Assembly (NCBI GenBank): GCA_965178125.1
Contig: OZ237754.1
Coordinates: 186,001-250,000, forward strand
DNA: 64,000 nt
Source: Bilabrum cf. latius
Lineage: Eukaryota
Direction: 5' to 3'
Shown: piece after piece, positions 2,358-49,382 of the stretch
Layout of the letters: the number at the start of each line of letters is the position of its first letter
How positions within the stretch are numbered: position 1 is the first letter of the stretch
Position numbers and translations under genes: made by a program
Notes under the pieces: generated by a model
Told to the model about the DNA's origin: nothing
Seen by the model: only the letters and a program-made list of their open reading frames with translations
Databases searched by the model: none

Positions 2358-2503
2358 TGGAACATGAGTGCACGCATAGCATATCTGATAATTAGATTCT
2401 GATTCCACAGTATGGCAAACACCACTTTGCGCAAAATTTACGAGTGCGCATCGCTCCATGAGAATTCAAAGAGTGCCAGCTGCGAATGCCAAGGTCACTG
2501 GCA

Positions 2504-19452: not shown

Positions 19453-22176
19453 TTATCGGCCCTGCTCTGTGGGCCCCGCCACCCGCATCACGCGTGCCCC
19501 ACCCTTGGTCTTGCCTGCCGCCTCTAGCGCACCTACCGCCCTTGTCAGCATCGCCTTGCCCTCCTCCCCTTGCGACTCAGCGGGCAGCGGCCCCAGCCCC
19601 TGGCCCCTCAGCCAACGGTAGAGCAGGGGCCTAACCAAGAAGGACAAGGACTCGAAGCTGTACAGCCCGTCCCCCTTGCGATATTTCCGCTCCGGATCCG
19701 TCGCCTCGAAGGTGGCCCTGGGTATGACCCGGCCCATTTGTTCCCCGAGGGCGAGGGGGTGGATGAGGTCGCACTTCCACCATAGCACGTAGGTCGGTAC
19801 CTTGACCAGGGGAAGGATCCCGCGGTGGTCCGTGTACGAGGCGTTGTACAGGACGAGGTGCGTCATGGCCCGAGGCATGGCCTCTGTCATCGAGCACGCG
19901 ATCCCGCCGCCCCACGACCACCCCATGACCACGACGGGGGCACCGGTCCCTCTTTCTCCCCTCTCGTCCACGATCCCGCTCTACATCAGCACCTCGTGAG
20001 TGATCTGAATCGGGCCACGGCGGTCAAGGTTTGTCTCGGATCGAGAACACCACCTGCGGCCAGGCGTGCGCCCGAACCCCGGGTGATCCACAGCCACGAC
20101 CCGCCACCCAGCCTCCTGCAGCCCCGCCCACATGTGCCTCTGATCCCTTGACCACGAGTGCGCCCCCCACCCGTGCAGAGTAATGAACACGGGGAGATCG
20201 TCCCGGGACCAGTCTCCCGCATAGTTAACGGCAACTTCCTGCCCCCAGCTCATCCTCACACGCCTCACCTCCCCGTACATGCAAGTGGCACCCTCCTTCG
20301 CGGCCGCCGCTGCCCTGGAGGAAGCCGTGCTGGAGGTGGAGCTCGTGCTGCGGCTGCGAGTCCTCCTGCCCTCGCCCCTCCCAGTCGCACCCACCGAGCT
20401 GCGAGCCGACCTCGCCGCCCGCCCCGTGCTCCGGCCCCTCGCAGCCCCCTTTCTCGATGCTCTTGCGGCAGCCTGCCTCTCCCTGGAGTAGGAAGAGGGC
20501 CGGCGGCGCTGCAGATGCGGAGGGACCGACGTGCTGCGTCGCCCGCGCCCCGACTCGCTCATCCCTGCAACGCGCCTGCTCGCACCAGCGCGCCGAGACA
20601 TGCTTGATCCGGCAGCCTGGGCGGCACCGGTGCTGGCCTCGGCTCCTGGACCCGCTGTCGACACGTCTCCCTCGGCCGAGCTAGACCCCGACTCCATGGA
20701 CCACGTCCCTGTGCCGCTCTCCTGTGTGCCCCCACCGTCATTTCTGCCCTAGCCGCCATCACCCGCCCCCGTGACAGCTCCGCCGGGGAACACATCCCGC
20801 TCTGCCTGCGCCGCTCCGCCCCCACCCCACAGGGACTCGCCGCCGAGAGGGACATATCGGCTTCTGGCCCTCACCGCCCGCTCCATGCCTGTGGACTCCG
20901 AGCTTGAGCCTGCCAGGCAGCGCAGTCGCGAGGGCCATGGGTTCTCAATGGTGTGACGAATAGCCGCCAGCATCATGTCCTCGTCATCCTGCGCCCCAGC
21001 CACACCGGCCGGAGTACCAGCCGATGCTGCCGTGCCCCCAATGATGCGCCTGCCTGCCCAAGGGTACGACTCTGGAGGAGGCCCCATGGGCAGAGAATCG
21101 AAAGACCAAGGGGGGCAGCCTGCTGTGCAGCGAGCTCCCATTGCAAATTCAGGTGCAGGTGCAGGTGCAGGTGCAGGTGCAGGTGCAGGTGCAGGTGCAG
21201 GTGCAGGTGCAGGTGCAGGTGCAGGTGCAGGTGCAGGTGCAGGTGCAGGTGCAGGTGCAGGCACCCGTATCCCACGCCTTGGGCCTTGCACACTGTCCCC
21301 TGACGCACTGCGGGCCCGGGCCCGTGCCCCCCCTGCAGCGGCACGCTCTAGAATGCCGGGGCGCGCGCTGCTGCTTGATGCAGCTGGACCAGCCGATGCA
21401 CCAGGTGCTCCACCAAGCGCCTTGTCACTCACTGCGGCTGGATGCGTCTCCGAGCGCCCGATGGCGCTATCATCGCTTCTGCAGATGGCGTCGAGCACCG
21501 CACCGCTGATGCTCTCGTAGTTCTTGCGCGATTTCTTGGCGCTGTAGGGCCCCGCGCTGAGCTCAATGTACCTGGACTGCTTGCCTATTGCCTTGTGCAC
21601 GGCTTTCGCCTGAGATGCCGGGTGGAACTGGTCTCGTTTCACTTGCAAGACGAGGCAGGGGCATTGGATCGCCCTCAGCTCGTCGGCCTGGAGGGTCCAG
21701 TTGCAGTGGAAGGCGGTGACTGAGCGAACCTAGCCCGGATTCGCGAGTGCAGCCGCCAGAGCCACGCCTCCTCCGTAATCGTATCCGATGAGGTGGGCCC
21801 TGGGTTTGATTGTCTCTTCTGGAATCACATCCATGCTCGCCTCAGCACCGCTGCTGGATGTGTTTGCGCCGACGGCAGATCCTTCGCCACCGAGCCAATC
21901 AATCACGTCAAACAAAGCCTCTACTGGTCCACCAGGCAGCCTGTGATATTCAGTTCTGGATGAGTACTTCTTGCCATCGGACAAGCCAAACCCAGGAAAA
22001 TCTATGGCGCAAACTCGGAAACCAAGTTCTGCGATCCTGGCCATGTAGGCTGACCAATTCAAACCAGATGCAGTTGGGCCGTAACCATGCAAGAGCATAA
22101 CAATTGGCCCATCATGCCGCCCCGATACGTACACATTTACCTTCCCAGCGCTCGACTTGACTTCGCGAGCCTCCAT
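19453..22176 (-). CDS. Protein with two alpha/beta-hydrolase domains joined by a low-complexity linker (~907 aa)
   Basis: Four same-frame ORFs joined by TAGs at 21730, 20749 and 19981. Domain 1: MLLHGYG, IDFPGFGLS, GYDYGG, DQFHP. Domain 2: ITLHGWG, VDHPGFGRT, GWSWGG, DLIHP. Two of the TAGs fall inside the domains. Ends in TAA. Confidence 0.85.
21150..21261. repeat. Perfect hexamer microsatellite (CAGGTG) x ~18, encoding (Ala-Pro)n in the hydrolase linker
   Basis: Directly visible uninterrupted tandem array; reads PAPAPA in the coding (minus) frame. Confidence 0.97.
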
Positions 22177-29600: not shown

Positions 29601-32600
29601 CAGCATCTTCAGGCTGAACAAGCCCCCACCCCCGCCCCCGAGCCTGTCCGGCGGTCCTTCCTCACCACCGCATCGATCACAACGCAAACGTCGGGGACGG
29701 GGGGTCGGCGGGAAGCATCGTGCAATGCACGGCGGCTCCGAGCAACGGCAGGGCAAGTCAAGCACAGGTGCTGGGGTCCAAGGCGCCGTGGTTGGCAAGC
29801 GTCGTGGCCGGCGGTTCATGCCTCGACCCCCGGCCTCGAAGCCGCCCCCTGCGGCCGTGCAGCGAGCCAAGCCTCCCCGCATGGCCCCGTTGAGTGCGAG
29901 AGGTCGAGCCGCTTTAGGATCGCCTACTGACGAGGCAGACGGGGAGATGCCGGCCCTGAGGCACAGCCAGCGGGTGTCGCGTGCGTTCGTGTCGAGCGCG
30001 GTGTCTGTGCTGCTGCATCAGCAGCGCACGAAGGCCCGGCTTGCCAAGCAGCTGGACACTGTGCAGGAGGAGACGGGCGAGGATGGCGGCGCTTCGAACA
30101 ATTCCACCGAGGTATCGAGCCCGGGTGTCGCGGCTGATAGCACGGCACCGGGCACAGGCGACGTGATCGGCGGCGGCAGGGAATCTCCCGCATCCACGCG
30201 ATCGAAAATCAGGGTGACCAGTGTGCAGGTGGTCAAGGTGGCCAATGGTGCCGCAAGTGGTGCGGCAGGTGCAGCTAGCGAGAGCAGTACTCCATCACTG
30301 GAAGGTGCCGGACAACCGCGTAGTGTCGATGGCACTGACAAGGCACTGGGCACAAACCCTCTGGACGCAGCGCGGCCAAGCGGGGGCATGGACGACGCTG
30401 GGGCCGGAGAGGAGGTCGATGGCGCCACGCAGGAGCCCATCGTCGTGCTCAGCGTAGAGGAGGAGGTTCCGCTAGGCCTCGTCCCGCTCGAGTCGTCCAG
30501 GTCCAGGCCCTCTGACCCGGAGGGCAAGATGGGCGTGCTGACTCCGAGCAGCAGCTTCTACGGCGGATTCGAGATGGCACGGTATGCCATCGCCACGCCC
30601 CGCCCCGATGTTGTGCTCCGCCTTCCGGCGCGCGTCATCGAGAGCTATGAAGCGGTGGAGGGCAGCGAGCTGTCGGCTGGTGAGGGCGACATCGTCATGG
30701 TGGACGAGCAGGACGAGTCCGGGTGGTGGGCATGCACGCTACTACAGACGGGTCACCCTGCGAATACCAGCACCTCCGGTGACGGGGGTCCGGGTGGCGG
30801 CGTATCTGCGCATGCTCTGGGCCAGACCCGATATCCAAAGGCCCTGCTCGGTCCGCAGGGTAAGCCCAAGCAGCCAGACAAGCAGGCAAACGGCCAGTCC
30901 GCGACGAAAGAGTCCGAGCAGCAGCCTGAGGACCCATATGATGACGGAACGCCCGTGCCCCCCAGCGGCTTCATTCCCTGCACATTCCTGGAGTGGGTAG
31001 ATCCTGCCGTGGCTGGCCTCAAGATAGAGAAGCGGCTTGATGGCTCCGCTGTGCTGATCCCGCTGCTCATGGGCCCGGCCGCCAGTCCTCCCACTGCGTC
31101 AAATCACCTGGACCTGTCCAAGCCAGCGGGTCGCAGCGCAGCCCGCAAGGTGGCCGACGCGGTGCGGACCGGTCCCAACCCAAAAGCCTGGGCAGAAGGC
31201 ACCAAAACGTTTGAGGACCTAGCGAGGGAGCGGCAGGGGCCCGGCGCTCAGGAACAGCCAGGAGAAGACACGACGCTGCCTGGGGCAGTCCCTGACAGCG
31301 CTGCGAGTGCCGGGGCGATAGAGGGCGGCACCGGGAGCGAGAGCGAGGTCTCGGATTCGAACTGGCGGCTGGACGTCGACAGCGGCATGTACGTGCGTCG
31401 CAACATGGCGTCCGGGCTGATCGAGCGCAGCGCGGATCCGTTCGCGGCAGCTTCCTTGGAAGAGACCCTGAAGCGGGTCGACCTGGAAGCATAGAGAAGG
31501 AAGGCACTGGCGGGGGACGCGACTGCGACTGGGGCGGCGTAGGACGTGGAATCGTTGGGGGCGTCGGTGGGAGGCTCGTCTGCGACGCAGACCGTGGACG
31601 GAGGGGATCGAGTGAATGCAGGCGACGAATACGGCGACCCGGACGGTGGAGAGGACTGGGAAGAGGACGAGGATGAGGACGGGGACGGGGACGGTGCCCG
31701 GCCTGCTGGTCCGGTTGACGATCCAGTTGGGCACTTTTATAGGGCCTTTGCGTCCTATGACGGGGGCGGAGAGAGCGATGTTGTCCTGTAGAAGGACGAC
31801 TGCCTGATCGTGTGGGACAGGGACGAGGGCGGGTGGTGGGAGGGCCGCAACGTGCGGACCCATCAGGACGGCTGGTTGCCCAGCACGTACCTGCAGGCCT
31901 GGCTCGAGGAGGAGCCGCTGCCCCAGGGGGCCCAGGCCGAGGCCTCTGCGCTGCTTGAGACGATCGCGACGGAGAGGTCTGGCTCAGGCGCCATGTCTGC
32001 AAGGGCGAGCCAGCTGATGGCAGCCGTGAGAATGAAGTCGATTCTGTCTGCGAGACGGGAAGAGGAGAAGACCGTCGAGGCGGACAGCGTGGAGGGCGCG
32101 CCGAACTCGATGGGCGGGGGCGCAGGGTCTTCTCCGGGCGCTGGGACTGCATCACGTGGCGAGTCACCAGGCCTCGCACCTGGCGGTGGAATCGCTGGGA
32201 CGGGGGCAGCCAGGCGGGGAACAGCTCATGGGCTCGGGAATGAGAGCGCGCCCTTCGTCAGCAGTCCAGGGGCTGCCCCAGGCGGGGGGCGGTCCATCTT
32301 GCGGGCGGCGCAGGCGCAGGCGCAGGCGCATGTGCAGCCTGGGTAGACCACGGCTCTTGGCGGGTTCGCGCCAGATGCGGGCCCAGGCAGTCGGATAGCT
32401 GAAGCTGATGCTGCAGCTGCGACTGAATCTGGTGAAATCCTTGCTTCGGACAGCAGCAGCGGCTGGCCGTTCGGCGGGCGGGACGGCAGCCGCGGATCGC
32501 TCCCCACACAGGACAAGCCCATCGACTGCAGGATAGGGTCGGGGTGGGAAGCCGGGGCCGGAGACAGCGGGGATGGGGATGGGGATGGTACGCTTGCTGT

Positions 32601-32766
32601 GGCTGTCGGGGATGTGGTGCGGGTATCCGGAGTCGACGACTCCGGTGACTGGTGCTATGGTTTCGTTGTGAGCGACGGCGACGAGTTGGGAAGCAGTGCT
32701 GGTGGTAAGCAGGCTGGCTGGTTCCCAGTGGCGGCAGTGTCGGAAAGTGTGGAATTGAGTAACTGA
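23673..32766 (+). CDS. Giant multidomain signalling protein: PB1-like domain, degenerate (pseudo)kinase domain, long disordered region, three SH3 domains (~3002 aa)
   Basis: Exon 23673-23930 (FKLKC(Q)LGD...DSNGDELQLASSEGLREA, PB1-like), intron 23931-24015, exon 24016-32766. One frame with 12 TAGs and a single terminal TGA. Kinase-like segments VFMDRAAGGTL, RQLCKGL, HTNISPQAVLFDDSGRVKI. SH3 motifs near 30630 (ELSAGEGDIV..DESGWW..GFIP), 31740 (YRAFASYD..GGWWEG..GWLPSTYL) and 32590 (LAVAVGDVV..GDWCYG..GWFP). Confidence 0.8.
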
Positions 32767-32905
32767 TTTGTGTGCCAGATTCTTGTTAGCTTGATGGTTA
32801 TTTGCGCGTGCTCAACTTGAGCCCGGCGGTGCAACTGCACCGCACTGCCAACTTCCACAACACGGGACTATTTCACGTAGCACACCCGTTCACTACTAGC
32901 CAGCC

Positions 32906-34507
32906 ATGCAATCACTCGCGATTTATGCTTTGGCATGCTCTTTCGCCAGTGCAAACGTATCAGCGCGCTGGGATCCCAAGAGTGCTCGTCCTGTTCGAAA
33001 AGCATTCTCGGGATTTAACGTGAATCTCAGCGGTGAAGGAGCTGGATCGTGGCGCAACTCAAGCTTTTTGGAGGGTTTCGAGCAAATTGGAGCTCAAATC
33101 GTGCGCTATCCTGCCGGAACGATCGCGCAGTGGTGGGACTGGCGGAAAGGCTGGTTCTGCGACCCGAAGCCGGGGCCCTGCGAGGATATTCCGGAGAGCT
33201 TTAAGCACCGCCCGTTGCCCCCACGCTTCCCGAATGGTTATCGTCTGGAAGACTTGGCCTACGCCAACCAAAATGGCGCCCATTTCCAGGTAGTTCTAGA
33301 TTTAAATATGATCTCGTCGAATCTATCTGAACAAGTCGCGATGGTATCCCATGCTGTTGAACTAGGCCTGTCCGTGCGGTACGTAGAGCTCGGCAATGAG
33401 TTCTACTTCCCTGTGGATTGGATGATCAAGCGATTTCCCAGCGTGGAATCGTATGCGAACGAGGCGACGAAGTATGCGACTGCGGTCAGAGGAGCCACGA
33501 ACTCCAGCATTCCAATAGCAGCAGTGGGAGAATTTCTTGGAAAGCAAGGCCCACCTCCATACAAGAATGGCACGGGAAGGATGGGAACCTGGAACGAGGG
33601 CATCAGGTCTGGCTTCGCGGACCGCTCCATTGTGCAGGGGGTGATTCTTCACGCGTACGAAGACCTCGGCCTCGCGGATGAGACTCATCTATGCGGCCCT
33701 AGCAGCTCCTTTGCGAATTGCAGCGTGCAGCAGACCATTCACGATGAATTCGTGCATCCTGGCGGCGTAGATCAAGTGCTCAGCTAGCCCTACTTCGCGA
33801 TCAAGTGGCTCGAGGACGTGGCGGCCCCGTTCGTTGCAGATGGGTTCGACGTGATCATCACAGAGGCAAATTTGATGAGTTTCTGTGGGTCAGTCCGGCA
33901 GACCTGGACGCACGCCCTTTGGATCGCGCTGTGGCAGAGCATGCTGGCGGGATCGCATCGCGCCTCGGTGTCCATGGGCCTGGTGCACGCACTCAGCGGC
34001 AACCCCATGTTCACGGCCATGTGGACGATGGAAGACTCGCTCAAGGACGTCTGCCTGAGCTCCAAGTCTGAGGATCCAGGCTCGGTGGCCGTGTTCCAGC
34101 CCTCCCCCCCTGGGATGGCTGTGCAGCTGGTGGCGGCTGCCGAGCGGTACGGCGAGGGGCGCGCGGTGGGACCCATCGATTTCGAAGGGAGTGTGCCCAT
34201 GTCCAACAGCTCCAATGGGCAGTATCCTGCATTGGCTGGCGTCTCGTGGCAGCCCGCCTCTGGCGGACTCGATGGCGGAAGCGACCGCACCGCTGTGCTG
34301 ATCAACTTGTCGGGATAGGAGCAAGAGGTGCGCCTGGATTCGTCCCTTGGATTCAATGCCTCTGCAAGGGTCATGGTGGCGAGTGCGAAGGCTGCTGGGT
34401 GGGTAACGCAGGGATGGTCAGACCCCAGGCTCGCGGTGGACGAGGGTACGCTCGGAGACGGGCAGGTCATTGGCATGCCCGCTTATTCGATCGCACAGGT
34501 ACTTTGA
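32906..34507 (+). CDS. Secreted clan GH-A glycoside hydrolase (GH51/GH44/GH79-like TIM barrel plus C-terminal beta domain), ~533 aa
   Basis: Signal peptide; VRYPAGT..WWDW, YVELGNEFY (acid/base), VILHAY, IITEANL (nucleophile region), C-terminal MPAYSIAQVL. TAGs at 33785 and 34316 are read through. Intronless; ends in TGA. Confidence 0.8.
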
Positions 34508-34702
34508 TTTTTTTCATTTTGCGTGTGATTTGCTGCATGACTTTGCGGGAGCTCTTGCACATCTATGCCTGGCCGTCAACAGTATCCATGAGTTCATCAA
34601 CAAAGCAGAGCAGTGGCAGTCCTGCTCAGAAAACAAAGCTAGAGTGCCCAGGAACATATGAATGAAACAGATTCACTCAGAACTGTGGCACGAGCGAAGA
34701 GG

Positions 34703-35122
34703 TCAGCCGGTAAGCTCCCAGAAGTAGACCTGCTTCTTGTCCCTTGTCCAGTAGGATCCATTCCCGTCGTGCCCGACCGGCCCGTCATCGTCCCAGAGAT
34801 CGACATGACTTGTCACGTAGAACATGATTATTCCAGTTTTGCCCTTGACTTCAGACTTGGAATCTACAGTGGCCGGCTCGCCAAGCTGAGCTGAGAGGAA
34901 AGTGAACATAGTTTTCACCTTGATGATGTACTTGTTGCCGTCTTTGTCGTAGTAGTCGCTGGGGATCGAGATTGGGAGACCAGCTTTGGTGAGAGCATAC
35001 GACATCCGCATCGCGCATGTGTCCTTCATTCTGTCGTCGTTGATGTTGCCGCCCCGAGCTGCTTTGAAGGTCTCGCCATCCGTCTCGTAGCTACCTTTGA
35101 CCGCGCTAAACTTCAGCGGCAT
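34703..35122 (-). CDS. tae4: Tae4-family (T6SS amidase effector 4-like, NlpC/P60 fold) peptidoglycan amidase, 139 aa
   Basis: Motifs DTCAMRMSYAL (catalytic Cys), YIIKV, LGEP, KGKTGIIMF, TSHVDLWD (catalytic His) and VYFWEL in the order and spacing typical of Tae4. ATG at 35122 is preferred over the ORF-track non-ATG start at 35194. Intronless; ends in TGA. Confidence 0.85.
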   Translation of the reverse strand: MPLKFSAVKGSYETDGETFKAARGGNINDDRMKDTCAMRMSYALTKAGLPISIPSDYYDKDGNKYIIKVKTMFTFLSAQLGEPATVDSKSEVKGKTGIIMFYVTSHVDLWDDDGPVGHDGNGSYWTRDKKQVYFWELTG

Positions 35123-35471
35123 GCTGCTATGGTAGAAAAGTAACGGTTCATGAATGCTGTATTTGGGATCCTGTGGATAGTATCCAGAATACACTGTTCG
35201 GGATCACAACTGCGGATCCTGGGAGCCTCGCACGCACGCCGCTGTGCACGCTGCGCCCATGCAACTCCAGTTCTGGTACAAGCAAGACATCCTGGTCTAT
35301 ACAAGTGCCTATCTATCTCACATGCAACTTATTTGAAGGTGGTGTTATTGTGTGATCACATTGATCAATTCGACTGCAACAGTGGGCAAAGCTGTGAACC
35401 CGGAACCGGCTATTCCCGCGGAAACCCGGAACTGGAACCGGTTCTGAAAAGAGAGCAAAGACTCCAACAGC

Positions 35472-37712
35472 TCACGCTTGCGCAGCCGCCCTGTAGTTCC
35501 CCACCAGCTCCGACACCAGCAGCGCCTCATCGTACAGGAGACCGTCCACGGACAGGTCCGAACCCCCCTTCGAAAGCACCGTCAGCCGCTGATCGGCAGT
35601 GTTCAGGTCTGCAAAGTCCCCTTGGAACCAGCTGAAGCCAGCCTGGTTGGTCTGCCCACCGTCGCACACGGTGCCGTCCACCACCCAGAACACTACGCGG
35701 GCGTTGCCGTCGGCCACCACCGCCAACCGCCTGGTGTCCACGCCAGGCGCGAAGATCTTCTTGCCGCACGCATCGTCCATGACAGACCGAACCATCGATT
35801 GGCCCTCCGGCTGCGACCTGTCGGCGAGCTGGAGCTCCACGGTGCTGGTCCCGTTGCCCTGCACCACGCCGAGCCTGATGCCCTGGCCGATGCTGCCACT
35901 GCCAGCGCCCGAGGCACCCGCGTCTGATGCCCTGGCTCCACCCCCTGCTTCGCTTGCGTCCAGCACAAAGTCGCCCACATCCAACAGGCTCATGTTCGTC
36001 ACCGACACGTCGATGGTCAAACCGGCGCGGGGTGCGTACACCGTGGAGGAGGCCTGCAGCCGGGGTAGCGTTTGCACCTGCGGCTGCTGGTAAGCACCCA
36101 GCCGCGTGTAGTTGCCGTCCCTGATCGTCTGCGCGCTCCACTGCCCGGCCAACGCCGACAGAAGATCGTCGCTCAGAGGGTGCGCCCTCGCTGTTGTTTT
36201 CTGCGTCTCTGTCATGGTGAGGCCCCAACTGCAGGACCCCCCCGACGGACTCGGGCTCTCTCGCTTGCCTGACGGTTGGGAGGCAGCGCGGAGGTCCTGC
36301 ACGATATCGGGGTAGCCCGGGCGAGTGTCTGGGTCGTTGCGGTCGTACAGCACAATCTCTGGCTGAGACCACAGGATGGTGCGGGTGCCGTTAGGGAGGT
36401 TGGACACGCGGCCAGCAGATAGCCAGTAGGGGTTGCGACCGTGCGCATACGACGGGTACGAGTTGAAGTAGAACAGGAGAAAGTACACCCCATCAGTAAC
36501 GGCGTCGTCAACAGTGCCACCGCTGACGGCGGTGCTCGAGGCGGGGGCGGGCTGCACGAACCTCATCTGCAGAGGGCCCCGAGGCTACTTGAGGCTGCCG
36601 CAGGGGAGCTGGGCGTACGGGTCCGGGATCACGCTGGCACCGACGCAGGCAAACTTGGCATAGCCTGTTGGTGCCCATCCAGCTTTACCCGTGGTGTCTG
36701 CCGTGTACGCTGCCGCCAGGTATCCCTGGGTGTTGCGAAACGCCACGTAGAATCCAAAGTAGTCGACGTTGACCGGCAGCTGCAGCGAGCGCCGGAGCTC
36801 TGGTGTGAGGCTGCTCGGCCAGTCTTCTGTCGGGTCAGCCAAGGCTCCTTGGCGTGCTTTTGGCAGCAGGATAGGTACGACATGCGGCTCCTCCCCGATG
36901 TTTGGATTGCCTCCAGGCGGGGCGATTCCGTGGTCAGCGTGCGGGAGCAGCTGGAAGCTCGCGGTAGACGGGTCCGATTCGCCCACCTGCAGCAAGTTGT
37001 CCGAAGCCAGTACGTACACCTCTTCTGGAGGATTGTAGGGGTAGTTTCCTATCTTCGTGTATGCGAACATGCAGGACAGGCTGCCGCTGCCCTGTGGGTA
37101 TCCCTCGGTGACGTTGTATGGGACGGTCTTCCACGCGTCTACGTTCCAGAACATCTGCTGCGAGCCCTTGAACGTGTTGTCTCTATCGATCGCAGTCACC
37201 TCGACGGGGATGCGAACGTAATCAGAGCTCCATGACCGCCCCTGGTTGTCAGTCCAGCGCAGCAAGAACGCCCCAACGGTATCCTTGCGAGACAGAGACT
37301 GCCCGCTTGGGTCCTTGGTTATGTTCCAGAAATTGTCATTGTAGACGACAAAAGAACGCTTGCCTGTGGTGACAATTGCAGAGTATGCATTGGTGATCCC
37401 GAGCGTAGTCGCATTCTTGTCGACAGGATTTAGGCTGCTGGCATTACGCGGATCCCAGGACTTGCCGCCATCCGTACTCCACAGCGACGTCACCTGCTCC
37501 CCCGCTCCGCCCTCATGAGCTGCATCTACAGTAGTGGGGCAATTCCACGTGCCATCCAGCGTAATTGCGCAGTATGGTTGGTCAGCGTACGCAGTCTCGA
37601 GCATCACGGCTGCTTCGGGCGCGTATATATTGCGAGGATCCGCAGACACGTTGTATCCTCCACGCACTGACACAGCTACGAGCAAAAGAATAGTGAGTAG
37701 AATGTTCAGCAT
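35472..37712 (-). CDS. Secreted sialidase/BNR (Asp-box) beta-propeller protein with a C-terminal LamG/concanavalin-like region (~746 aa)
   Basis: Signal peptide MLNILLTILLLVAVSVRG; YADQPY; Asp-boxes STDGGKSW and TDNQGRSW; RNPYWLSAG, WSQPEIVLY, GYPD, TETQK. ORFs 36585-37712 and 35472-36566 are joined by TAG 36585 (LK(Q)PRGP). Intronless; ends in TGA. Confidence 0.8.
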
Positions 37713-37897
37713 CGTAGCAAGTCAGACTAGGCCTTAGTCCTTGGATCTTGAGATGATTTCAACTGCAACTTCAAAATAATAGTTTTCATCAAAGTGTCAC
37801 GTTACTTTGAAGCCCCAGCCTGTTTCGGATTTCAGCGCGCTGAAACAGAATTATTCGGCTAGCTGAGAATATTTCATGGCACCGGGCTACTTGCCAC

Positions 37898-40099
37898 TTG
37901 ATGCGACGTGCAGCCATCGTCTATTGTAACCTTCCAGCTACTACTAGTAGTACTACATTTGCGACCATTGGCAGGCAAGTCCAGAGGCTGAGCCAGTGTG
38001 CGATCGTATCTGCCCAAGAAGCCCGCATGGGTGTCAATGGAGTGCCTAGGCGTGTAAAGGATTGCAAATGCGTGCTTGTGCTGAATGTGTTGCCGGTGGT
38101 GATGAATGGCACAGCTATTTCCGGTCTGCCAGTGCGGGATCGGAGGCAGGTAGAGACAACTTGCGGCCCAAATCTGGTTCCAAACAGACTTGCACCTCAT
38201 CACAATATGGAGAACGTAAGAGTATCTGTCAGATCCTCATGTGCCGAATCTTTGATTCCCCTAGAAGTAACAGAATGGTTGCTTCGTTCCTCGCTCGATC
38301 CATCACTATCGCAGGATTGCCCAAAGCGGACAACTGACGAGCGCCTGGGTGCAGTAACCAGGATTTTACCACACCGTTTGAAATCATCTGGCGGCACATG
38401 GCCGGTAGGCTCCATGCACCTGGCTACGGAGTGTCCAACGCCTCGCCAAGTCGAGGTGGAGCTCGAAACAGGCACTGCAGAGGACGTTGAATATTCCTTC
38501 TGGGAAGGCGTGCCAGAAAATGCAGAATCGCATCTTTTCCTTTCAAGAACAGATTTTCTGGTCGAACAGCTGGGATCGGAGGATTCTGCATCTGTGGAAG
38601 CAGCAGCAGTCGCTATTTCCGTGTCGGCAGCAACCGCCGCAGGTCGCAACGCAGTGGTCGGCAGTGGGGTGCTGCCGGCCCTGGTGCGAATCTCCCGCTC
38701 TGCTAGAGGCCGCGAGGCCATTAAAGCAATGTGGGCATTATCTTCACTTGCTCTCGGAAACCATGAAATTAAGTCCGCGATCGTGTCGGCAGGGGCGTTA
38801 GCGGCGGCATCGGCCTTGATGGGGGCAGCCACCTCTTCCTCTTCTTCCTCTTCTTCCTGCTCTCCAGGTGATCCGAGCGAGGCGCACGCAACCACTGAGG
38901 CAGAGGAGGGAGCTGCGCTACTACGCAATTTAGCCTGCGGAGCAGAAGACATCAAGTTGGCCATCGTTCGATCTGAGTCCCTCCCGAGACTGATCCACCT
39001 GCTGGGGTCTTGCAAAGGCAACGAGGCGGAGGAGGCTGCTGGCTGCCTCCGCGCACTGGCTGCCGGGACTGCCGCGATCAAGGACGCTATCATCGCAAAG
39101 GGTGGAGCGCCAGCTCTAGCAAGAGTGCTGCGCACCACTGAGGATAAAGCGGTGGAGGAGGCAGCAGGTGCGCTGCGACTGCTTGCCGCCGGCAGCGATG
39201 AACACCGCGAGGCCGTGCGTGCGGCTGGTGCTCTCCCTGCTGCTGTTGATTTGCTAGGATCTGGGTGCCCTAGCATTAAACGAAAGGTATTGGGCATTCT
39301 ATTAAATGTCGCAGCTGGTTCTACTTCTCTCAAAGCAGCGCTGGTGGACTGTATGACCCTGCCGACCGTGGTGCGGTTGATGGAGCATGCGATGAGCGTA
39401 GCCACCGACCATCCTGTAGCCGCGGCAGGAGGCAAAAAAGTCGGGTTGAGGCCAAAATGTGGATTATCTACACCTTCTAGTGATCGGTTGCCCTGTGATG
39501 GTCCTAGTGTCCCCGAGCATGAGGTGCTGGAGCAGCTGGCTGTGACAAAAAAGGCGGCTAGCCTGATGTGGAACGTCGCAGCCGGCCCCGGGCCGCTCAA
39601 GCGAGCCATTGTGGGCTGTGGTGCGGTGCCTTACCTTGTGCAGATCATGAATCTTATCCCAGTTGCAGATGCTGCAAGTGCACGCGCCGCTGCAGCTGCT
39701 GCTTCGGGTCCAGGCGAAGCAGGGTCCAAGCGAGGAAAAGCCAGCAGGTCACCAGCAGTCGCACGAGCCCGGGAGGCAGCGGGGCGCAAAGCCCTGGGTG
39801 CGCTATGGAACTTGAGCTGCGGGGCAGCCGGTAAGGTGAAAGCACTTTCGGACGCTGGCGCACAGCCTGTGCTAGCGAAGCTCGTTGAATCGGAGCACAG
39901 CAGCACGCGGCGAATGGCATCAGAGATGCTGGACAGAATACGAGGTATCACCAGTGACGCAACGGAGCACGCATCGGCGGAGACAATCTCAATGGGCTCC
40001 ATTGCATCGCCGGCTTCGAGCCAGAGGTTAGTAGCAAGCCCACTGGCCGCCCTCGATAGCTCGCACTCGCCGAGCTGGTCGGGAGCGCGGTTCACTTGA
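37898..40099 (+). CDS. Armadillo-repeat protein (start uncertain, between 37898 and 38207)
   Basis: Repeated ARM units: GVLPALVRI...AMWALSSLA, GALAAASAL...AALLRNLA, LPRLIHLL...AAGCLRALA, GALPAAVDLL...ILLNVA, GAVPYLVQI...ALGALWNLS. Ends TGA-TGA. Confidence 0.85.
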   Translation: MMRRAAIVYCNLPATTSSTTFATIGRQVQRLSQCAIVSAQEARMGVNGVPRRVKDCKCVLVLNVLPVVMNGTAISGLPVRDRRQVETTCGPNLVPNRLAPHHNMENVRVSVRSSCAESLIPLEVTEWLLRSSLDPSLSQDCPKRTTDERLGAVTRILPHRLKSSGGTWPVGSMHLATECPTPRQVEVELETGTAEDVEYSFWEGVPENAESHLFLSRTDFLVEQLGSEDSASVEAAAVAISVSAATAAGRNAVVGSGVLPALVRISRSARGREAIKAMWALSSLALGNHEIKSAIVSAGALAAASALMGAATSSSSSSSSCSPGDPSEAHATTEAEEGAALLRNLACGAEDIKLAIVRSESLPRLIHLLGSCKGNEAEEAAGCLRALAAGTAAIKDAIIAKGGAPALARVLRTTEDKAVEEAAGALRLLAAGSDEHREAVRAAGALPAAVDLLGSGCPSIKRKVLGILLNVAAGSTSLKAALVDCMTLPTVVRLMEHAMSVATDHPVAAAGGKKVGLRPKCGLSTPSSDRLPCDGPSVPEHEVLEQLAVTKKAASLMWNVAAGPGPLKRAIVGCGAVPYLVQIMNLIPVADAASARAAAAAASGPGEAGSKRGKASRSPAVARAREAAGRKALGALWNLSCGAAGKVKALSDAGAQPVLAKLVESEHSSTRRMASEMLDRIRGITSDATEHASAETISMGSIASPASSQRLVASPLAALDSSHSPSWSGARFT

Positions 40100-40289: not shown

Positions 40290-43200
40290 TCACCCGATGT
40301 GGCTGCTGCTTTCATGCGCAATGAGTTCTTCTTGCGCGCGTTGCTTTTCTTCATCGCTCTCGCCGCCATCTTCCGCCTCGCGGTGAAACTGGTGATGGTG
40401 CCTTTGGTGCGAAGCATCCTTGTCCAGCAGCACCGGGCCGAGTTGGGAGATCCCCACAGCTCCAGCTGGCGCTGTCAGTAGGACCGACAGGACGGCCACA
40501 GCAAAGATAACCAGAGCACGGCGCTCGTCCTCCTCCTACACATCCGGGTTTTCGTACGAGCGTTTGCCAATCTGTTTCACCGCGACGCCAGCGTAGGCCG
40601 CCTGCACTGTCGCCTTGGGCATCCAGGCGATGGCGATGAACAGCATCTCGCTGTACGAGAACTCGCCGGTCGCCACGGACAGGAACGCGGTGATGCTTCG
40701 GGCCGCAAGCGCCAGCAGAACAACCACGAGACCCCACCCCAGATAGCTGGGATCCAGCTCCGCGAGATTTACGGAAGCTCCGATCAAGCCGAATAGCAGC
40801 GGCTGGAGAAAGGACCACAGCCACGACACGTTCTCCTCCACAGCCTCGGAACCTACGGATCCTGCGTGTGCGCCCAGCATGTACGACGCCATCGTCCCGG
40901 CGATGATGGAGCCAAGAGGACCGATTCCTTCCACCCCCAGTTCCTTCGCCACGAACATCCCGGTGATCGACATGCTTAGGAGCAATACCGTGCGGCGGGC
41001 AGGGAGTTGTGGGTCGATGTCTTGGTCTGGCACCACGAGCGTTCTTGGCCCGTGCAGCTGCTCATCTTCAATAGTAGACCGCACCACATCGTCGTCACAC
41101 TCATCTTCCGCTCCCACGCACCCTTCACCGGCGAACTCCTCGGGTTCACGGTACGGCAGGCCATCTCGGCCGGTGATCGATCCAATGCTGCTGTGCCGTC
41201 TCATTCTTCCACCCGCAGGGTCCGTAGACTCGGCACCCAGACCGAACCAGCTCGAGGCTCCGAGCGTTTGTGCGTCCATGGAAGCCTGACGCGAGTACTG
41301 CCGGCCCGCCGCCATTTCTGGGTCGAGAGCCGCGCTGCCCTGCGTGTCTCTCTCCGGATCCAACGCTCTGCTACTTTTCCCCGGTCTCCAGCGGTGCAGC
41401 CGAAGCGTGCTAGGATGCACGGACATCAAGTCATCATCGGCCGGGCGGCGCGGTGGAGCGCTTGTCGCGGCTGCTTCCCACAGGGGCATCAGGTCGTTTG
41501 TGCCGAGACCCATGGTAAGGTACTGTGAATCTGCACCGGCGCCGACTTCGGCCCCTGGTTGCCTTGCCTAGACCACGCGCTGCCGCTCGCGCACTGCCTG
41601 CTCATCCAATCGACGGTCGACCTGCGCCTGCTCCTCGCGGTCGCCTTGCCGCTCGGCTCGCCAATCATCGCCACACAGAGTATGCGCATAGTGCATCTAG
41701 CCGCGTTGCTACTGCAATCGACCGGCCGGATCCGGCCACTCCTCAAAGTCGACCGATGCGATGGGGTGCACCTCGCTGGAGTCGTCCTGCATGCCAGTGG
41801 GGGCCCAGCCGTCCTGCAGGCTTTGGCATCGTGCCCTCCTCGTCGCTCGCTGCTTGGTTGGGCTATGGTCTCCTGCACTGGGTGAATTCGGCGCAAGCCC
41901 TGCCTCGCTTTCGTGCTTCTTCGTTTCTGACGCTGGCGGCAATCGAACCGGAGTAGGCGGCTCGTCATTGCGGTGGACAGACTGCTGCTGGACTGTGGCT
42001 CCCCTGCCAGTGGCTGCTGGGCCGCGAGTCTGCTCCTGCATGCTGCTGTCGGGCCCGACGTAGCCACCCTCGAGATTGGTGCTGCTCGTGCTAGAGCTGC
42101 TGCTTGTTCGTGTGCGCTGGCGGCCTTGCTGCTCGGGAGCAGCACCTTGTTCCACCCCTTCAATCGTGGCTGTGATCCCAGATACGCCTGAAATCCCCCT
42201 TCGAATTGCATCCTGCCGCCTCTCCTCGATTGTGCGGCACTCGTCCTGATCCAGCGGTCCAGCTTGCCTCCCCGCAGCCCCAGGGGCTCCTTGCCCTCGA
42301 CCGTCCGCGTCGGGGTCTGGGCAGTGTCGGTGGATGGATGCGGTGACGTCACTATGCACCGCAGTCGCTGCACCAGGCGTCCCGCCAGATGATGGCACCG
42401 GGCTGCCTCTCGCTGCTGCATCCTGGCGGAGCTCGAGCAGCCTTGGCTGGCGGACCCTCAGCTTCCTCGCGAGGTCGACATCGTCCGGCGCTCCCACGTG
42501 CGGCCCTATCGGAGGTGCCGACGACTGCACAATTTTGCGAACCGGGTCGGAGGGGGTCGATATCCGCACCTTCTTTTGCTTGCTGGCGCCTGCTCCGCCA
42601 CCGCGACGTATTCTGTCGGCCGGAGGCGACTCGCCAGTGGGTGGAGGAAGAATTGGCCTCGGCTGCCCAGAGCGATGCCGGGTCTCTGGTGTGGCAGTCC
42701 GGCTGTCCAGCACCGCCTTGTCGGGAGTTTCCCTCGTCGAAGACTTGTGCGCGGGACCGCAGCGGTCTTTGCCCGAAGCATCGCTCTGCATTGCCTGCCG
42801 CCCCTCTCGCATCCCCACGGAACCACACGTGCGAGCATAACTCGGCTTGCGTCTGCGCGCCCCAGCTGCTGCAGCCTCAACTCGAAATCTCGTCGCGTCA
42901 TCCGAGGCAATCTGTGCAGCGCCACTCGTCCCTCTCGATGAATTTCGTCCCGCGCCGCCCCCGGCAAGCTCCCTTCGAAACCTTTCAGCAATTGTAGACC
43001 GACCGTCGCTGTCCTGTCGGCCACGGTATGCATCCCCTACAGCCGTCTATAGCCGGCGGAGAACGTGCGGTCTCGCTGCGACCGGCTCGCCCTTGGTCAG
43101 TGCTCTGTACGTTAGCAGCATTTCGTCCTCATCCCTGTGCTCCTCCTTGCGAGCGTGCGGGCGGTTCCGCTTGTCGACCTCCTGGTGGTGCTGCTGCAGC

Positions 43201-45154
43201 CACGCCGGGGCAGGGAAGGGCTGCAAGGTACCCACGGGCATTGCCCGCATACGGCGTCCTCGGCGGCGAGGCAGCAGCTTCTTTCTGTTGTCAATCTGCA
43301 GTCGCTGCTCGTTTGCTTGCCACGGGGCGTGCTCGTTGGCGTGCTCGGCGTGCTGCCTCGCTCGATTATCCGCCCGTCTCTGCCTCTCTCTCTGTGCCTT
43401 GCGGAGCGCAGTGATCTGTGACGCATTGCTGGTCGCAGATCCCATGCTGTCTTGTCGCGGCCGCGTCACCTGGCTCCCGGCGCCGCGGAGGGACCGTCCC
43501 TGCATCATGCTGTCAGTGCCAGTCCGGGTCCAAGCCGAGGCCACCGGACTCTGCTCGCGCACTCGCTTTGCCATGGACTCTTGGCTCATGGATGCTTCCT
43601 GATGGACGTAATGGTGTGATTGAGGTGTCAACTGGTTGCCGACGCGTCCACCGCTAGATTCCGTGTCGCTCCTACCGTCATCTTCCTCACTCTACTTGTG
43701 CTCGAGTGCGCCGTCGATATGGTCCCTTCCATGGTGTGAACCACCCTAACTGCCGCCGCCACCCAGCTCCCAGCCTTTTGAGTCCTCACCGGCTCCCAGC
43801 AGCCCAGCTATCCTCTTACCGATGGCCCCCAATTTGCCGCTGACACCCTCTGGGACTTCCCCCCGACCAGAGTCGGCCTCAACAACAGGCCCTGGGTCCG
43901 GCTGCCTCCTTGCAACGGTACCCTCGCCCTTTCCCTCATCCTGCGACGGCTCATCCCCACCTTTCTCGCTACCAATACCATCGCGCGCACCCTCCTCCTG
44001 GTCGCAGCTGCGAGCCTCTGCCTCTGCCTCTGGCTGCTGGCTTCCGCCGCTGTCAAGTCTAGCCATCTCGATAGATTTCGAGTCCGATGTCTGCAGCCCG
44101 TAGTATCCGGAGCCACCTCGCTAGTATGGCTTGATGGCATCAGCTGTAGGCAGCAGGAACCACACGGCGTAGCCCTGCAAGCAGCCCCACATCACGCCGA
44201 CCGCCAGCTCCACCGGCCCCTTGCCGACCACCCATCCGATGCTCTCCCCGCTGGAAAACAAAATGCTGGCCACCACGCCTATACCCGCGATTGCAAACAC
44301 GTCATCAAGGCTGCTGGCACCGACAACCAGGGATGGGATCCCTTTGTCTACTCCGTATCCACCCTTTTGTAGCTGAAGCAGACTGGGCACCACAATTGCG
44401 GGGCTCACGGCACCAAGAATAAACCCAAGAAGCAAGCCCCATACTGGCGGTAGGTCCAGAAGATAATATCCCGTTAGGCATGTGGCTCCAGCCTCCACGA
44501 TCATCGGGAGAATGCTAAGCGTGAAGACTACGACTTCTTCGTGCAAGAGAGCTTGCAGATCGATCTCAAGACCGGCAAGCACAAGGATCACAGCGAGGCA
44601 AGTCTCACGTAATACCTCGCCAAGATGCTCATCAATATCAGCTCCAACGTTGACAGCCGCCAGATTCCTCAGAACTCCGCCTCCCTGCGCGATATTGATG
44701 GCAATGCTAGTTGATGGGGTGGTGACTGAAGCAGTCTTGCGTTGATATTTTGGTTGTAGATTCAACCATGGGGTAACGGGGGCCTCAATACAATGAGTTA
44801 AATAGTGGTTAATACATTAAAAGCGTGATGCATTCAACAGAGCGATTTTCAGGCGTACTACTAGTGGACCAGCATAGAAGAATGGACCGCAACTTGAAGA
44901 TGTGTCGCCTGACAGCTCTAACTCACGATCAACATGCCCAGGATAGGCGGAAGGCCTGCTTTCTCGCAAAGCTTGCCAAGTATAGCAGACAAAGCGTAGA
45001 CTGCCTCAACACCAAACCAAGAGCCGCCTGGCCTGAACGTTTCAGCAGAGAAGCCCAAGGCAAGCGCTACAAAGGCAAATAGCAAGATGCGCCAAGCGGC
45101 CGACCGCACCATTCTGGCAACAGGGTCTGGCATGCTCCCTTCAACTAGTACCAT
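40290..45154 (-). CDS. NHA/SLC9B-type (CPA2) cation:proton antiporter with a very large internal hydrophilic insertion (~1540 aa)
   Basis: Exon 45154-44927, intron 44926-44685, exon 44684-40290 with 8 TAGs. Motifs LPPILGMLI|GGGVLRN, LGAVSPAIVVP, GYGVDKGIP, SSLDDV, QPLLFGLIGA, IAWMPKATVQAA and, after TAG 40536, VAVLSVLLTAPAGA. Ends in TGA. Confidence 0.9.
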
Positions 45155-47760: not shown

Positions 47761-49351
47761 ATGCAAGCTCCATGGCCCCTTGGAGATTCTACCACTGTAG
47801 AGTAGCTTGAATAGTAGATTCAAGATATGAACCAGATTGACATCAGAACGCTCGGACCGTAAGAAGAATCCAGCTCTGGAAGTGGCGTGATTTGGGAGCA
47901 AGGGCAGCGGCACTTCACCTGGCTGCCCTACAGCATCTCTTGGGTCCGCACGGGCTCGTGCAGTTCCCATCCATGACCTGCTCGATAAACATAATTCCAT
48001 TGATTGCGACTATCCTTGAAATTGCTTTCATCTTGGGAGGCAGAGCACAGACTTGCTCACGTGAAGTGCACCTCCTGGTCCGATTGATTCTCGCTCCGTA
48101 TGCCTCGCAGGAAGCAACGAACACGACATAATGCGCGCCGTGCAAGGCTAAGGAGACGGCTGGATCTGTTGGTACTCGAGTAGGAGGCTCAAAAGCTGGA
48201 GGGCGAAAACTCTATCATTCGTCGAGTGCTGTTGTACGTAGAGGACATTTATGAAGATGCTCGAAACAGACAGAGCCAGGCGGCAGCAGTGCAAAATCCA
48301 TCGGATCAGCATGTTTTGGCTGATTAGGGTGTGAGCCTAGCACTGTTGTCGCAGGCAGCCTCAGCAGCAAGCGAGACGTTCCGTACTACCGCAACTACAC
48401 CTTCTCTCCAACTGGGCCAGAGTGCCTCGACGCAACCTCCTCAGATGTCCATGATAGATACACCGCAATCGATTGGACCACGACGGATGGCAGGGATCCC
48501 GCCAGTTGCCGTAAGCGGGATATCGAGCTCAGGGTCCGACCGCGCTGGGCCAACCACCACCGAGATGAGTACGCTACCGTTGGATTATTCGTAGTAGCAG
48601 TAGTTGTAGCAGCCATAGGAGTCGATGTAGAGCCAATTTACCGCCGAGTCAAGCTCCAGTAGGACCGAATCCGTGGTTGATGGCCTGGATGAGCGCTCCA
48701 AGCAACTGGCCGAGGGCCTCAACGCCGTGCGAGCCATCGAGCTGCAACTGCAGCAGGCAAAAATACTGGCAAACACGCTGAGACAGGCAGTTCCACTCCC
48801 TTCATCGAATTCTTTCGATCGAGCCGGCACTGCAATCGAGCCCAGCAGTGCACAGAGCCATCAGCTGCAACTGAGGCACGGTGGAATGGATGCCTTTGAG
48901 GCCCACGCGAAGGGGATCGGCGAAAAGCAAGCGCTCGTGGCTCCTGGCCCGCCCCGTGGGGGTGGCCTTAGGAATCCCTTCGGCCCCACAGGATCCGAAT
49001 CGGACGGAAGCTTTGGGGGCCTTGTCGCAGCCGTCGCGGGGGGCATGCCGCCGGGGCCTGGCGGGTACCCGGCCGATTCAGGGGCAGATTCCTTCGCGCA
49101 GCTTCGGGGCGGGGCAGGGTCCAGCACGATATCGTCCTTGGCTGGTGCTAGAGGACGTGTGAAGCGCAGGAGCTATTCCAAGGCGGGATCCTTCGACGAC
49201 GACGGAGCAGACAGCTCCAGGGCGGGATCTGCGGGTGCGATGCCCGGGGCATTCTTCGCAAAAGCGTCTGGAATCGTCAACTCTTCTGCGTCCCAGTCGG
49301 GCTTGGAACAAGGCAGCAGCAAGAACATGCAAGCTGCTGCGAATCACAGCT

Positions 49352-49382
<31 letters not shown>

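Follow-up and report, generated by a model that had tools for sequence, protein, structure and literature searches.

Dae4/Tae4 proteins encoded by eukaryotes are already known from Nematostella and Giardia muris, and Chou 2015 is the founding dae paper. The Nematostella vectensis protein, nvDae4, retains the activity of the family: it cleaves sacculi and kills B. subtilis. It has a secretion signal, and E. coli was lysed only when the protein was directed to the periplasm (PMC8713801). The bond that Tae4 hydrolyzes is γ-D-glutamyl-mDAP, as stated in an excerpt of PMC7641422, and according to a section of PMC3695027, catalysis requires a Cys and a His, with Tae4-specific elements around the active site proposed to set specificity. 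Among the bacterial enzymes, Serratia Ssp1 has the triad C50-H133-D135 and Agrobacterium Tae4 the triad C47-H131-D133, with the Asp at His+2 (excerpt of PMC6277958).

The G. muris Tae4 (GMRT_14171) is a protist protein for which an action on bacteria has been proposed. It is transcribed (FPKM 43 to 146 in the paper's table) and was reported as a recent acquisition, its best match being to Bacteroides, at 46%. In the excerpt of that paper, the labels of the tree in Fig. S8J include Monosiga XP_001745837, Branchiostoma, Saccoglossus, Exaiptasia, and Nematostella but no parabasalid or SAR organism, and the topology is not visible there. Trichomonas NlpC/P60 enzymes reach the cell surface though some of their signal peptides escape prediction, and T. 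vaginalis NlpC_A1 is surface located (both from an excerpt of 10.1101/320382). Our literature search found no description of a leaderless protist subfamily of Tae4; Chou 2015 or Hayes 2020 may cover Monosiga. The term dae is absent from the excerpted text of the review PMC4832377, and none of the words dae4, tae4, amidase, and peptidoglycan occurs in the main text of PMC8592570, a paper on choanoflagellate STING.

Here we describe a Tae4 gene in a 64,000-nucleotide stretch of eukaryotic DNA (the window). Like nvDae4 and the dae4-like proteins of Branchiostoma and Saccoglossus, its product is a eukaryote-encoded Tae4 with a catalytic Cys, outside any secretion system. Unlike nvDae4, which has a secretion signal and comes from an NF-κB-induced immune gene, the window protein appears to be leaderless. 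The Branchiostoma and Saccoglossus proteins differ from it in forming a starred clade of their own and in having a longer Cys-to-Tyr spacing, the distance in residues between the catalytic Cys and the Tyr in the YII strand, which is 29 in the window protein. The predicted fold is that of the Enterobacter and Salmonella Tae4 (4hfk, 4j30), Agrobacterium Tae4 (6ijf), and Serratia Ssp1 (4bi3), at TM 0.71 to 0.78, but structural identity is 20 to 25%, the window protein is about 20 residues shorter, and unlike bacterial Tae4 effectors it has no Tai4/Rap1a partner or T6SS genes. On balance, and with modest confidence, we read it as a long-domesticated, host-encoded Tae4-type peptidoglycan peptidase that lies in, or is sister to, a leaderless protist subfamily and is probably cytosolic.

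The Tae4 gene and its catalytic residues

Judged by its sequence, the window gene is a real, intact, and domesticated Tae4-family gene with a predicted activity. It runs from an ATG at 35122 to a TGA stop in the translated window and contains no TAG codon. The 139-aa ORF with Tae4 Cys and His motifs that a sequence-only reading had pointed out is in place, with DTCAMRMS and TSHVDLW both present. Its features are as follows.

34703..35122, minus strand: cysteine peptidase gene of the Tae4 family (PF14113) with the NlpC/P60 fold, one ORF of 139 aa, assigned by profile, PDB, and model
35015..35017, minus strand: Cys36, predicted catalytic nucleophile, within DTCAMRMS, aligning with the Cys of 4hfk C-P-I-R-M-S-Y
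34907..34960, minus strand: SDYYDKDGNKYIIKVKTM segment, the signature and shortened hairpin with a Cys-to-Tyr spacing of 29, common to the protist subfamily
34805..34822, minus strand: loop ahead of the catalytic His, cut to 5 residues in P0001 (the window protein) and P0002, a shortening absent in the orthologue P0003/P0004
34799..34807, minus strand: His106-Val-Asp108, predicted catalytic His and H+2 Asp, within TSHVDLW, assigned by alignment
34805-34807, minus strand: His106 codon
34799-34801, minus strand: Asp108 codon

The Pfam Tae4 profile PF14113 matched the protein over profile positions 2 to 125 of 125, with a score of 69.8 bits against a cut-off of 27 (E 3e-19), and a full-length match so far above the cut-off bears out the proposed family. 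A sequence search against the PDB matched 4hfk at E 1.2e-9. We then looked at structure. The AlphaFold model, made from a 16-sequence alignment, had a pLDDT of 89.7 and a pTM of 0.85, and the top 11 Foldseek matches to it (E ≤ 1e-3) were Tae4/Ssp1 structures in 11 of 11 cases, the best TM, 0.78, being to 4hfk. A search of the ESM Atlas with the 139-aa protein led to Tae4 clusters too, at 0.96.

Cys36 is invariant throughout alignment A2, and all three residues are present in the four rows of the query group (P0001 to P0004, defined below). The Cys36-His106-Asp108 triad, assigned by alignment rather than by side-chain geometry, is intact and by sequence is of the H+2 type found in Ssp1 and Agrobacterium Tae4. 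By analogy with the family, Cys36, together with His106 and Asp108, would attack the γ-D-Glu-mDAP bond of peptidoglycan stems, and we consider γ-D-glutamyl-mDAP hydrolysis the very probable chemistry of P0001.

Chromosomal setting and host code

The gene content of the window is eukaryotic, with matches to pelota/eRF1 domains, SH3, Armadillo, bZIP-PAS, and papain; the papain gene has apparent GT-AG introns, and the window is intron poor overall. The stretch is present whole or in part in 8 sequencing runs from 4 studies, and 4 of the 10 listed were compared. In run X5, from a second study, one 3372-base contig covers 32864-36235 with 0 differences at a depth of 2.6, and since it bridges both flanks of the Tae4 gene, the join is not chimeric. 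One contig of run X1 spans 32000-38000, but X1 may be the source of the assembly. Both junctions are thus bridged by contigs, as distinct from raw long reads, and the earlier placement of the gene on a contig of eukaryotic genes stands: the Tae4 gene does belong to a eukaryotic chromosome.

The GC3 of the Tae4 ORF is 0.71 and its codon adaptation 0.705, compared with 0.54 to 0.81 and 0.59 to 0.79, respectively, in 16 host frames. Both values lie within the host range, which supports amelioration of the gene. A bacterial contaminant joined into a eukaryotic contig might be suspected from the bacterial family, the absence of introns, and an overall GC of 0.53 that is the lowest of the 17 frames. 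We give this explanation next to no weight, since most neighboring genes are likewise intronless, codon use is host-like, and an orthologue lies on another eukaryotic contig, L001; together with the X5 bridge, these findings refute a chimeric contig as far as contigs allow. No transposon-like repeats flanked the gene, where only one 13-nt direct pair and one 11-nt inverted pair were found.

Run X6 ("RNA?, probably DNA") has separate contigs at 32000-32796, 32989-34548, 34572-34982, and 35380-37737, one per gene, with no cover between the four; the first of them ends in a loose A run. Run X8 ("RNA?") covers 34694-35121 and neither flanking gene. This pattern of cover looks like transcripts, which we take as a hint only, and contig depth cannot rank the genes.

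The sequence-only reading had stated that no immunity or T6SS genes were adjacent, and we agree. No Rap1a/Tai4 or other Pfam match was found in 8 of 8 small ORFs around the Tae4 gene, nor any Pfam match in the two flanking genes, while the same search detected Rap1a beside a phage-borne Tae4. Over these ORFs and genes, the window gene does not form a T6SS effector-immunity pair (Tae4-Tai4). The host has no peptidoglycan, so an immunity gene would be unneeded. The two flanking genes are as follows.

32906..34507, plus strand: convergent host gene downstream of Tae4, encoding 533 aa across 2 in-frame TAG, N-terminus hydrophobic, without a match in Pfam, NCBIfam, or the PDB
35472..37712, minus strand: host gene upstream of Tae4 on the same strand, encoding 746 aa across 1 in-frame TAG, N-terminus hydrophobic, without a match in Pfam, NCBIfam, or the PDB

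These neighbors are given as context only, not as proposed parts of a system with the Tae4 gene. Structure prediction of the 533-aa protein without an alignment gave a pLDDT of 34. By eye, it has RYPAG and GNE motifs that we take to be like those of the GH-A clan, and the 746-aa protein has S-x-D-x-G-x-[ST]-W repeats that are presumably Asp-box-like; the two may be enzymes that are secreted and degrade glycans.

The reading frames of both flanking genes continue through TAG codons, which the sequence-only reading had overlooked. From its sequence, the host reads TAG as sense, with Gln as the best fit, and TAA and TGA end genes. Between 2504 and 56538 of the window, 71 in-frame TAG codons occur in 13 of 16 long frames, a count that is partly circular because the frames were picked under TAG read-through. 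Five of these codons are covered by Pfam matches, namely those to SH3, alpha/beta hydrolase, Na/H exchanger, bZIP, and PAS, and TAG is located in polyglutamine runs. In the TAG neighbor profile, Gln was the best of 20 residues (log-likelihood 5.9), with His next (3.9). ARAGORN found 0 tRNA genes in the window. Going by the bZIP-PAS gene and the style of the genome, the host may be a heterotrophic stramenopile, though this is a guess. An excerpt of PMC11687900 lists UAG-only Gln for Iotanema, Protocruzia tuzeti, Hartmannula, and Trochilia, which the GC-rich, TGA-preferring host seems unlike, and our literature search found no report of a UAG-only Gln code in a stramenopile. The AT-richer (53% GC) protist contig L001 also reads through TAG at 1425-4271, where a DnaJ gene has 6 in-frame TAG; another frame has 1. 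The code change is therefore common to at least two divergent organisms, and the TAG=Gln code of the host may be of separate interest.

Other genes of the window also had unusual features. The pelota gene (eRF1-domain ribosome-rescue factor; 552-2357, plus strand) has a C-terminal extension of about 140 aa; its closest match is 77% identical and 369 aa long, and an extended pelota is possibly of interest in a stop-recoding organism. A 1368-aa bZIP and PAS protein (48100-52206, plus strand) has 17 in-frame TAG. Some 1000 aa of low-complexity sequence, which could include unrecognized introns, interrupt the membrane domain of a Na+/H+ exchanger (40290-44504, minus strand). Two alpha/beta-hydrolase domains (19453-22176, minus strand) are connected by a linker that contains a long Ala-Pro dipeptide repeat.

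Relatives of the window protein and their origin

We searched 1.84 billion representatives with phmmer and found 98 matches, 10 of them at E ≤ 1e-10. P0002 is 89% identical to the window protein, with catalytic residues unchanged, and P0003/P0004 are 47 to 52% identical. P0004 is encoded on L001, and because that locus reads through TAG, a second TAG=Gln protist has the Tae4 gene as well; its neighbors there differ, and the genes that flank Tae4 in the window are not conserved beside it. Searching with a profile of 16 close matches yielded 138 proteins, of which 120 were listed. Their scores leave a gap from 139 down to 116 bits, which is not independent evidence because the profile was built from these sequences. 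Above the gap, the named proteins among the matches listed belong to Monosiga brevicollis, Tritrichomonas foetus, and Histomonas meleagridis, so that all 3 named subfamily members among the matches listed are protists.

These three proteins, XP_001745837 (P0006), TRFO_21668 (P0013), and GPJ56_006500 (P0120), are the nearest named relatives in the trees and are uncharacterized database proteins. They resemble the window protein in their length (about 140 to 160 aa), lack of a leader, and signature segment. Local identity to P0001 is 36 to 40% for P0006 and P0013 and 29% for P0120. Several have Thr, Cys, or Ala in place of the Asp at His+2, and all retain a long pre-His loop.

All four of the metagenome loci recovered (L001 to L004) look eukaryotic. 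L002 begins with 16 telomere repeats, and in L002:1-679 the subfamily gene starts 167 bases from the (CCCTAA)n tract, a subtelomeric position. L003 carries a code-6 GTPase gene, a 468-aa frame with 23 TAA and 19 TAG. L004, an AT-rich contig of 26% GC, is the weakest of the four; it has one in-frame TAA in the gene and could be a pseudogene.

Prokaryotic and viral sequences were also searched. The exact 8-residue motif GNKYII[KR]V, on which the negative result for GTDB rests, had 46 matches in 185,579 prokaryote genomes, with 0 relatives among them, and a scan of GTDB with P0001's own words gave 138 pattern matches and 0 relatives. No subfamily members were found in plasmids. Viral contigs gave 0 of 5 with A1 and 3 of 121 with A2; L005 and L006, the two of these three that were inspected, encode ordinary bacterial-type Tae4. 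Phage records gave 1 weak, unannotated match. The Tae4 genes of L005 (3543-4375) and L006 (3513-4375) are on viral contigs of 60 and 42 kb; the gene upstream in L005 is a Rap1a immunity gene, which makes up an effector-immunity pair carried by phage-like DNA, and in L006 the upstream ORF resembles it.

For phylogeny we collected 214 proteins and excluded 4 pelota proteins; the profile was matched by 209, of which 204 had a coverage of 75 columns or more. Four trees were made: a quick mixture tree of 94 rows, a quick LG+G4 tree of all 204, a careful LG+G4 tree of 50 rows, and a careful mixture tree of 34 rows with L003/L004. Subset rows were hand chosen, nvDae4 is not among the named rows, and the G. 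muris Tae4 is not in the trees. The query group (P0001 to P0004) was starred in all four trees (98, 98, 100/96, and 100/99). Its sister was a group that holds Monosiga, Tritrichomonas, Histomonas, and three eukaryotic metagenome loci and that was itself starred (98/97) in the tree of 34 rows with L003/L004; we call it the protist group, a label that for its mostly metagenome-derived rows is inferred from the 3 named members and 3 loci. The value for the sister relation was 88 (SH-aLRT) with 94 rows, 92/95 with 50, and 93/78 with 34 and L003/L004; the branch was unresolved with 204 rows and never starred (UFBoot 92 to 93 in the two careful trees).

The Cys-to-Tyr spacing was 29 in 4 of 4 query-group rows, in 25 of the 29 measurable protist-group rows (31 in all), and in none of the 169 others (154 unassigned, 8 animal, and 7 short-loop rows). 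An alignment-free count gave 4 of 4, 23 of 26, and 0 of the 113 measurable others, 56 of the 169 not being measurable. P0001 has this spacing together with the SD[YF]-D-GNKYII segment, and the spacing, as a structural character of the sequences, agrees with the sister relation of the query and protist groups.

It therefore seems probable from trees and sequence characters that the window gene did not arise by a new transfer of its own, and that it lies within, or is sister to, an undescribed branch of protist Tae4 that lacks a leader. That branch would extend across a choanoflagellate, parabasalids, and several uncultured eukaryotes, and vertical inheritance within the query group is supported by the 89% identity of P0002 and the grouping of P0003/P0004 with P0001. 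We put forward more tentatively, as somewhat less than an even prospect, that one old acquisition of tae4 gave rise to a eukaryote-only leaderless peptidase now spread over choanoflagellates, parabasalids, and other protists, by descent or by protist-to-protist transfer.

The sequence-only reading had proposed that this may be a further independent domestication, serving to digest prey or to defend against bacteria. The chromosomal Tae4 is indeed domesticated, but by tree and shared deletion its nearest relatives are the Tae4 proteins of other protists. An independent origin keeps some probability because the sister relation is unstarred and because AU tests on the 50-row tree left its alternatives unrejected. 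The TAG=Gln lineage could have obtained tae4 from an unsampled bacterium, the protist likeness then being due to convergence or to one bacterial pool drawn twice. The query and protist groups are starred separately while their union is not, a position of the query group with the bacterial short-loop group was left standing (p 0.114), and G. muris offers a case of a separate recent tae4 transfer to a protist. P0001 also has its shortened pre-His loop and a YETDG stretch in common with P0019 of the short-loop group, which contains the named bacterial Rhs toxin P0009. However, the pre-His loop is long in the orthologue P0003, and its shortening in P0001/P0002 is therefore probably of later date; the spacing-29 deletion with the SDY-DK-GNKYII signature is absent in 169 of 169 other rows; and the searches of GTDB, plasmids, and viral contigs turned up no donor. 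We regard an independent acquisition as unlikely, but as deserving serious weight.

Still less probable, in our judgment, is a single ancient acquisition for all eukaryotic dae4, of animals and protists alike, which would make the window gene an orthologue of nvDae4. The animal, query, and protist groups do lie together in the tree, though with weak support (81 with 204 rows; 81/38 with 34 rows and L003/L004), Branchiostoma is the second-best phmmer match, aided by its three repeats, and the AU test did not reject query and animals together (p 0.372; 50-row tree). Against this, the spacing in animal rows is 33 to 41 rather than 29, these rows mostly have leaders, and in the 50-row tree the same unresolved fork also holds unnamed rows and one bacterial row. 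The query group lay outside the starred animal clade (Branchiostoma and Saccoglossus) in four of four trees, so nesting within the animal dae4-like clade, which the earlier reading had asked about, was ruled out, while a sister position was unrejected. Among the animal proteins, P0005 and P0101 (Branchiostoma, lancelet) have tandem Tae4 domains, with 3 matched stretches in P0005. P0024 has a seeming kringle domain (by eye) fused to Tae4.

Site of action and substrate

The best 9-residue mean of N-terminal hydrophobicity in the window protein was 0.48, well under the 2.5 above which our crude proxy scores an N-terminus as signal-like, and in the sequence 5′ of the ORF, a TGA is reached before any further in-frame ATG. 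The earlier remark that there was no obvious signal peptide thus holds: the 139-aa protein is leaderless by the hydrophobicity proxy, an upstream exon being possible. Across the query and protist groups, 1 of 35 rows (P0109) had a hydrophobic N-terminus, several rows being N-terminal fragments, compared with 5 of 8 animal rows.

Since the leader is missing in nearly the whole subfamily, we place the working site in the cytosol. There the enzyme may break down wall fragments from digested bacterial prey, for salvage or disposal, and as a side benefit it could act on bacteria that reach the cytosol or escape the vacuole.

The main rival to a cytosolic site is nonclassical delivery: an enzyme of the same origin, though leaderless, would reach the food vacuole or cell surface and lyse prey or competitors directly, as nvDae4 does. 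The killing of B. subtilis by nvDae4, the surface location of T. vaginalis NlpC_A1, the signal-like N-terminus of P0109, and the hydrophobic N-termini of both flanking genes are all consistent with it. On the other hand, the proxy scores no hydrophobic N-terminus in 34 of the 35 rows, nvDae4 carries a secretion signal and needed periplasmic targeting to lyse E. coli, and the orthologue in L001 does not have the flanking genes beside it. We judge such delivery to be unlikely, and the cytosol remains our preferred site.

Peptidoglycan disposal by bacteria-eating protists is poorly described. As a single further eukaryotic Tae4, the window protein would be ordinary. A cytosolic subfamily, if real, would represent an unrecognized step in the handling of bacterial wall material or, alternatively, a cell-autonomous antibacterial weapon older than animal immunity. 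The eukaryotic Dae4 that has been tested, from Nematostella, is a secreted animal immune protein; the leaderless branch would show the same weapon used intracellularly, and widely. The predicted enzyme is small and soluble, a Cys-to-Ala control is ready, and there is a member in a laboratory choanoflagellate.

Finally, because the G-W/F-x-D-A loop before the catalytic His has been lost in P0001/P0002, we considered whether the enzyme might have drifted to another substrate, for example one from the host or small D-amino-acid peptides. This loop has 10 to 11 residues in most homologues, including 28 of the 30 protist-group rows measured, as opposed to 5 in P0001/P0002, and Tae4-specific elements around the active site are the ones proposed, in the section of PMC3695027 cited above, to set specificity. 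However, all 7 of the short-loop rows have a loop of 4 residues, the C-terminal domain of the bacterial Rhs protein P0009 among them, and a short loop is therefore compatible with a presumed wall toxin. A change of substrate appears improbable to us, and peptidoglycan remains the predicted substrate of the window protein.
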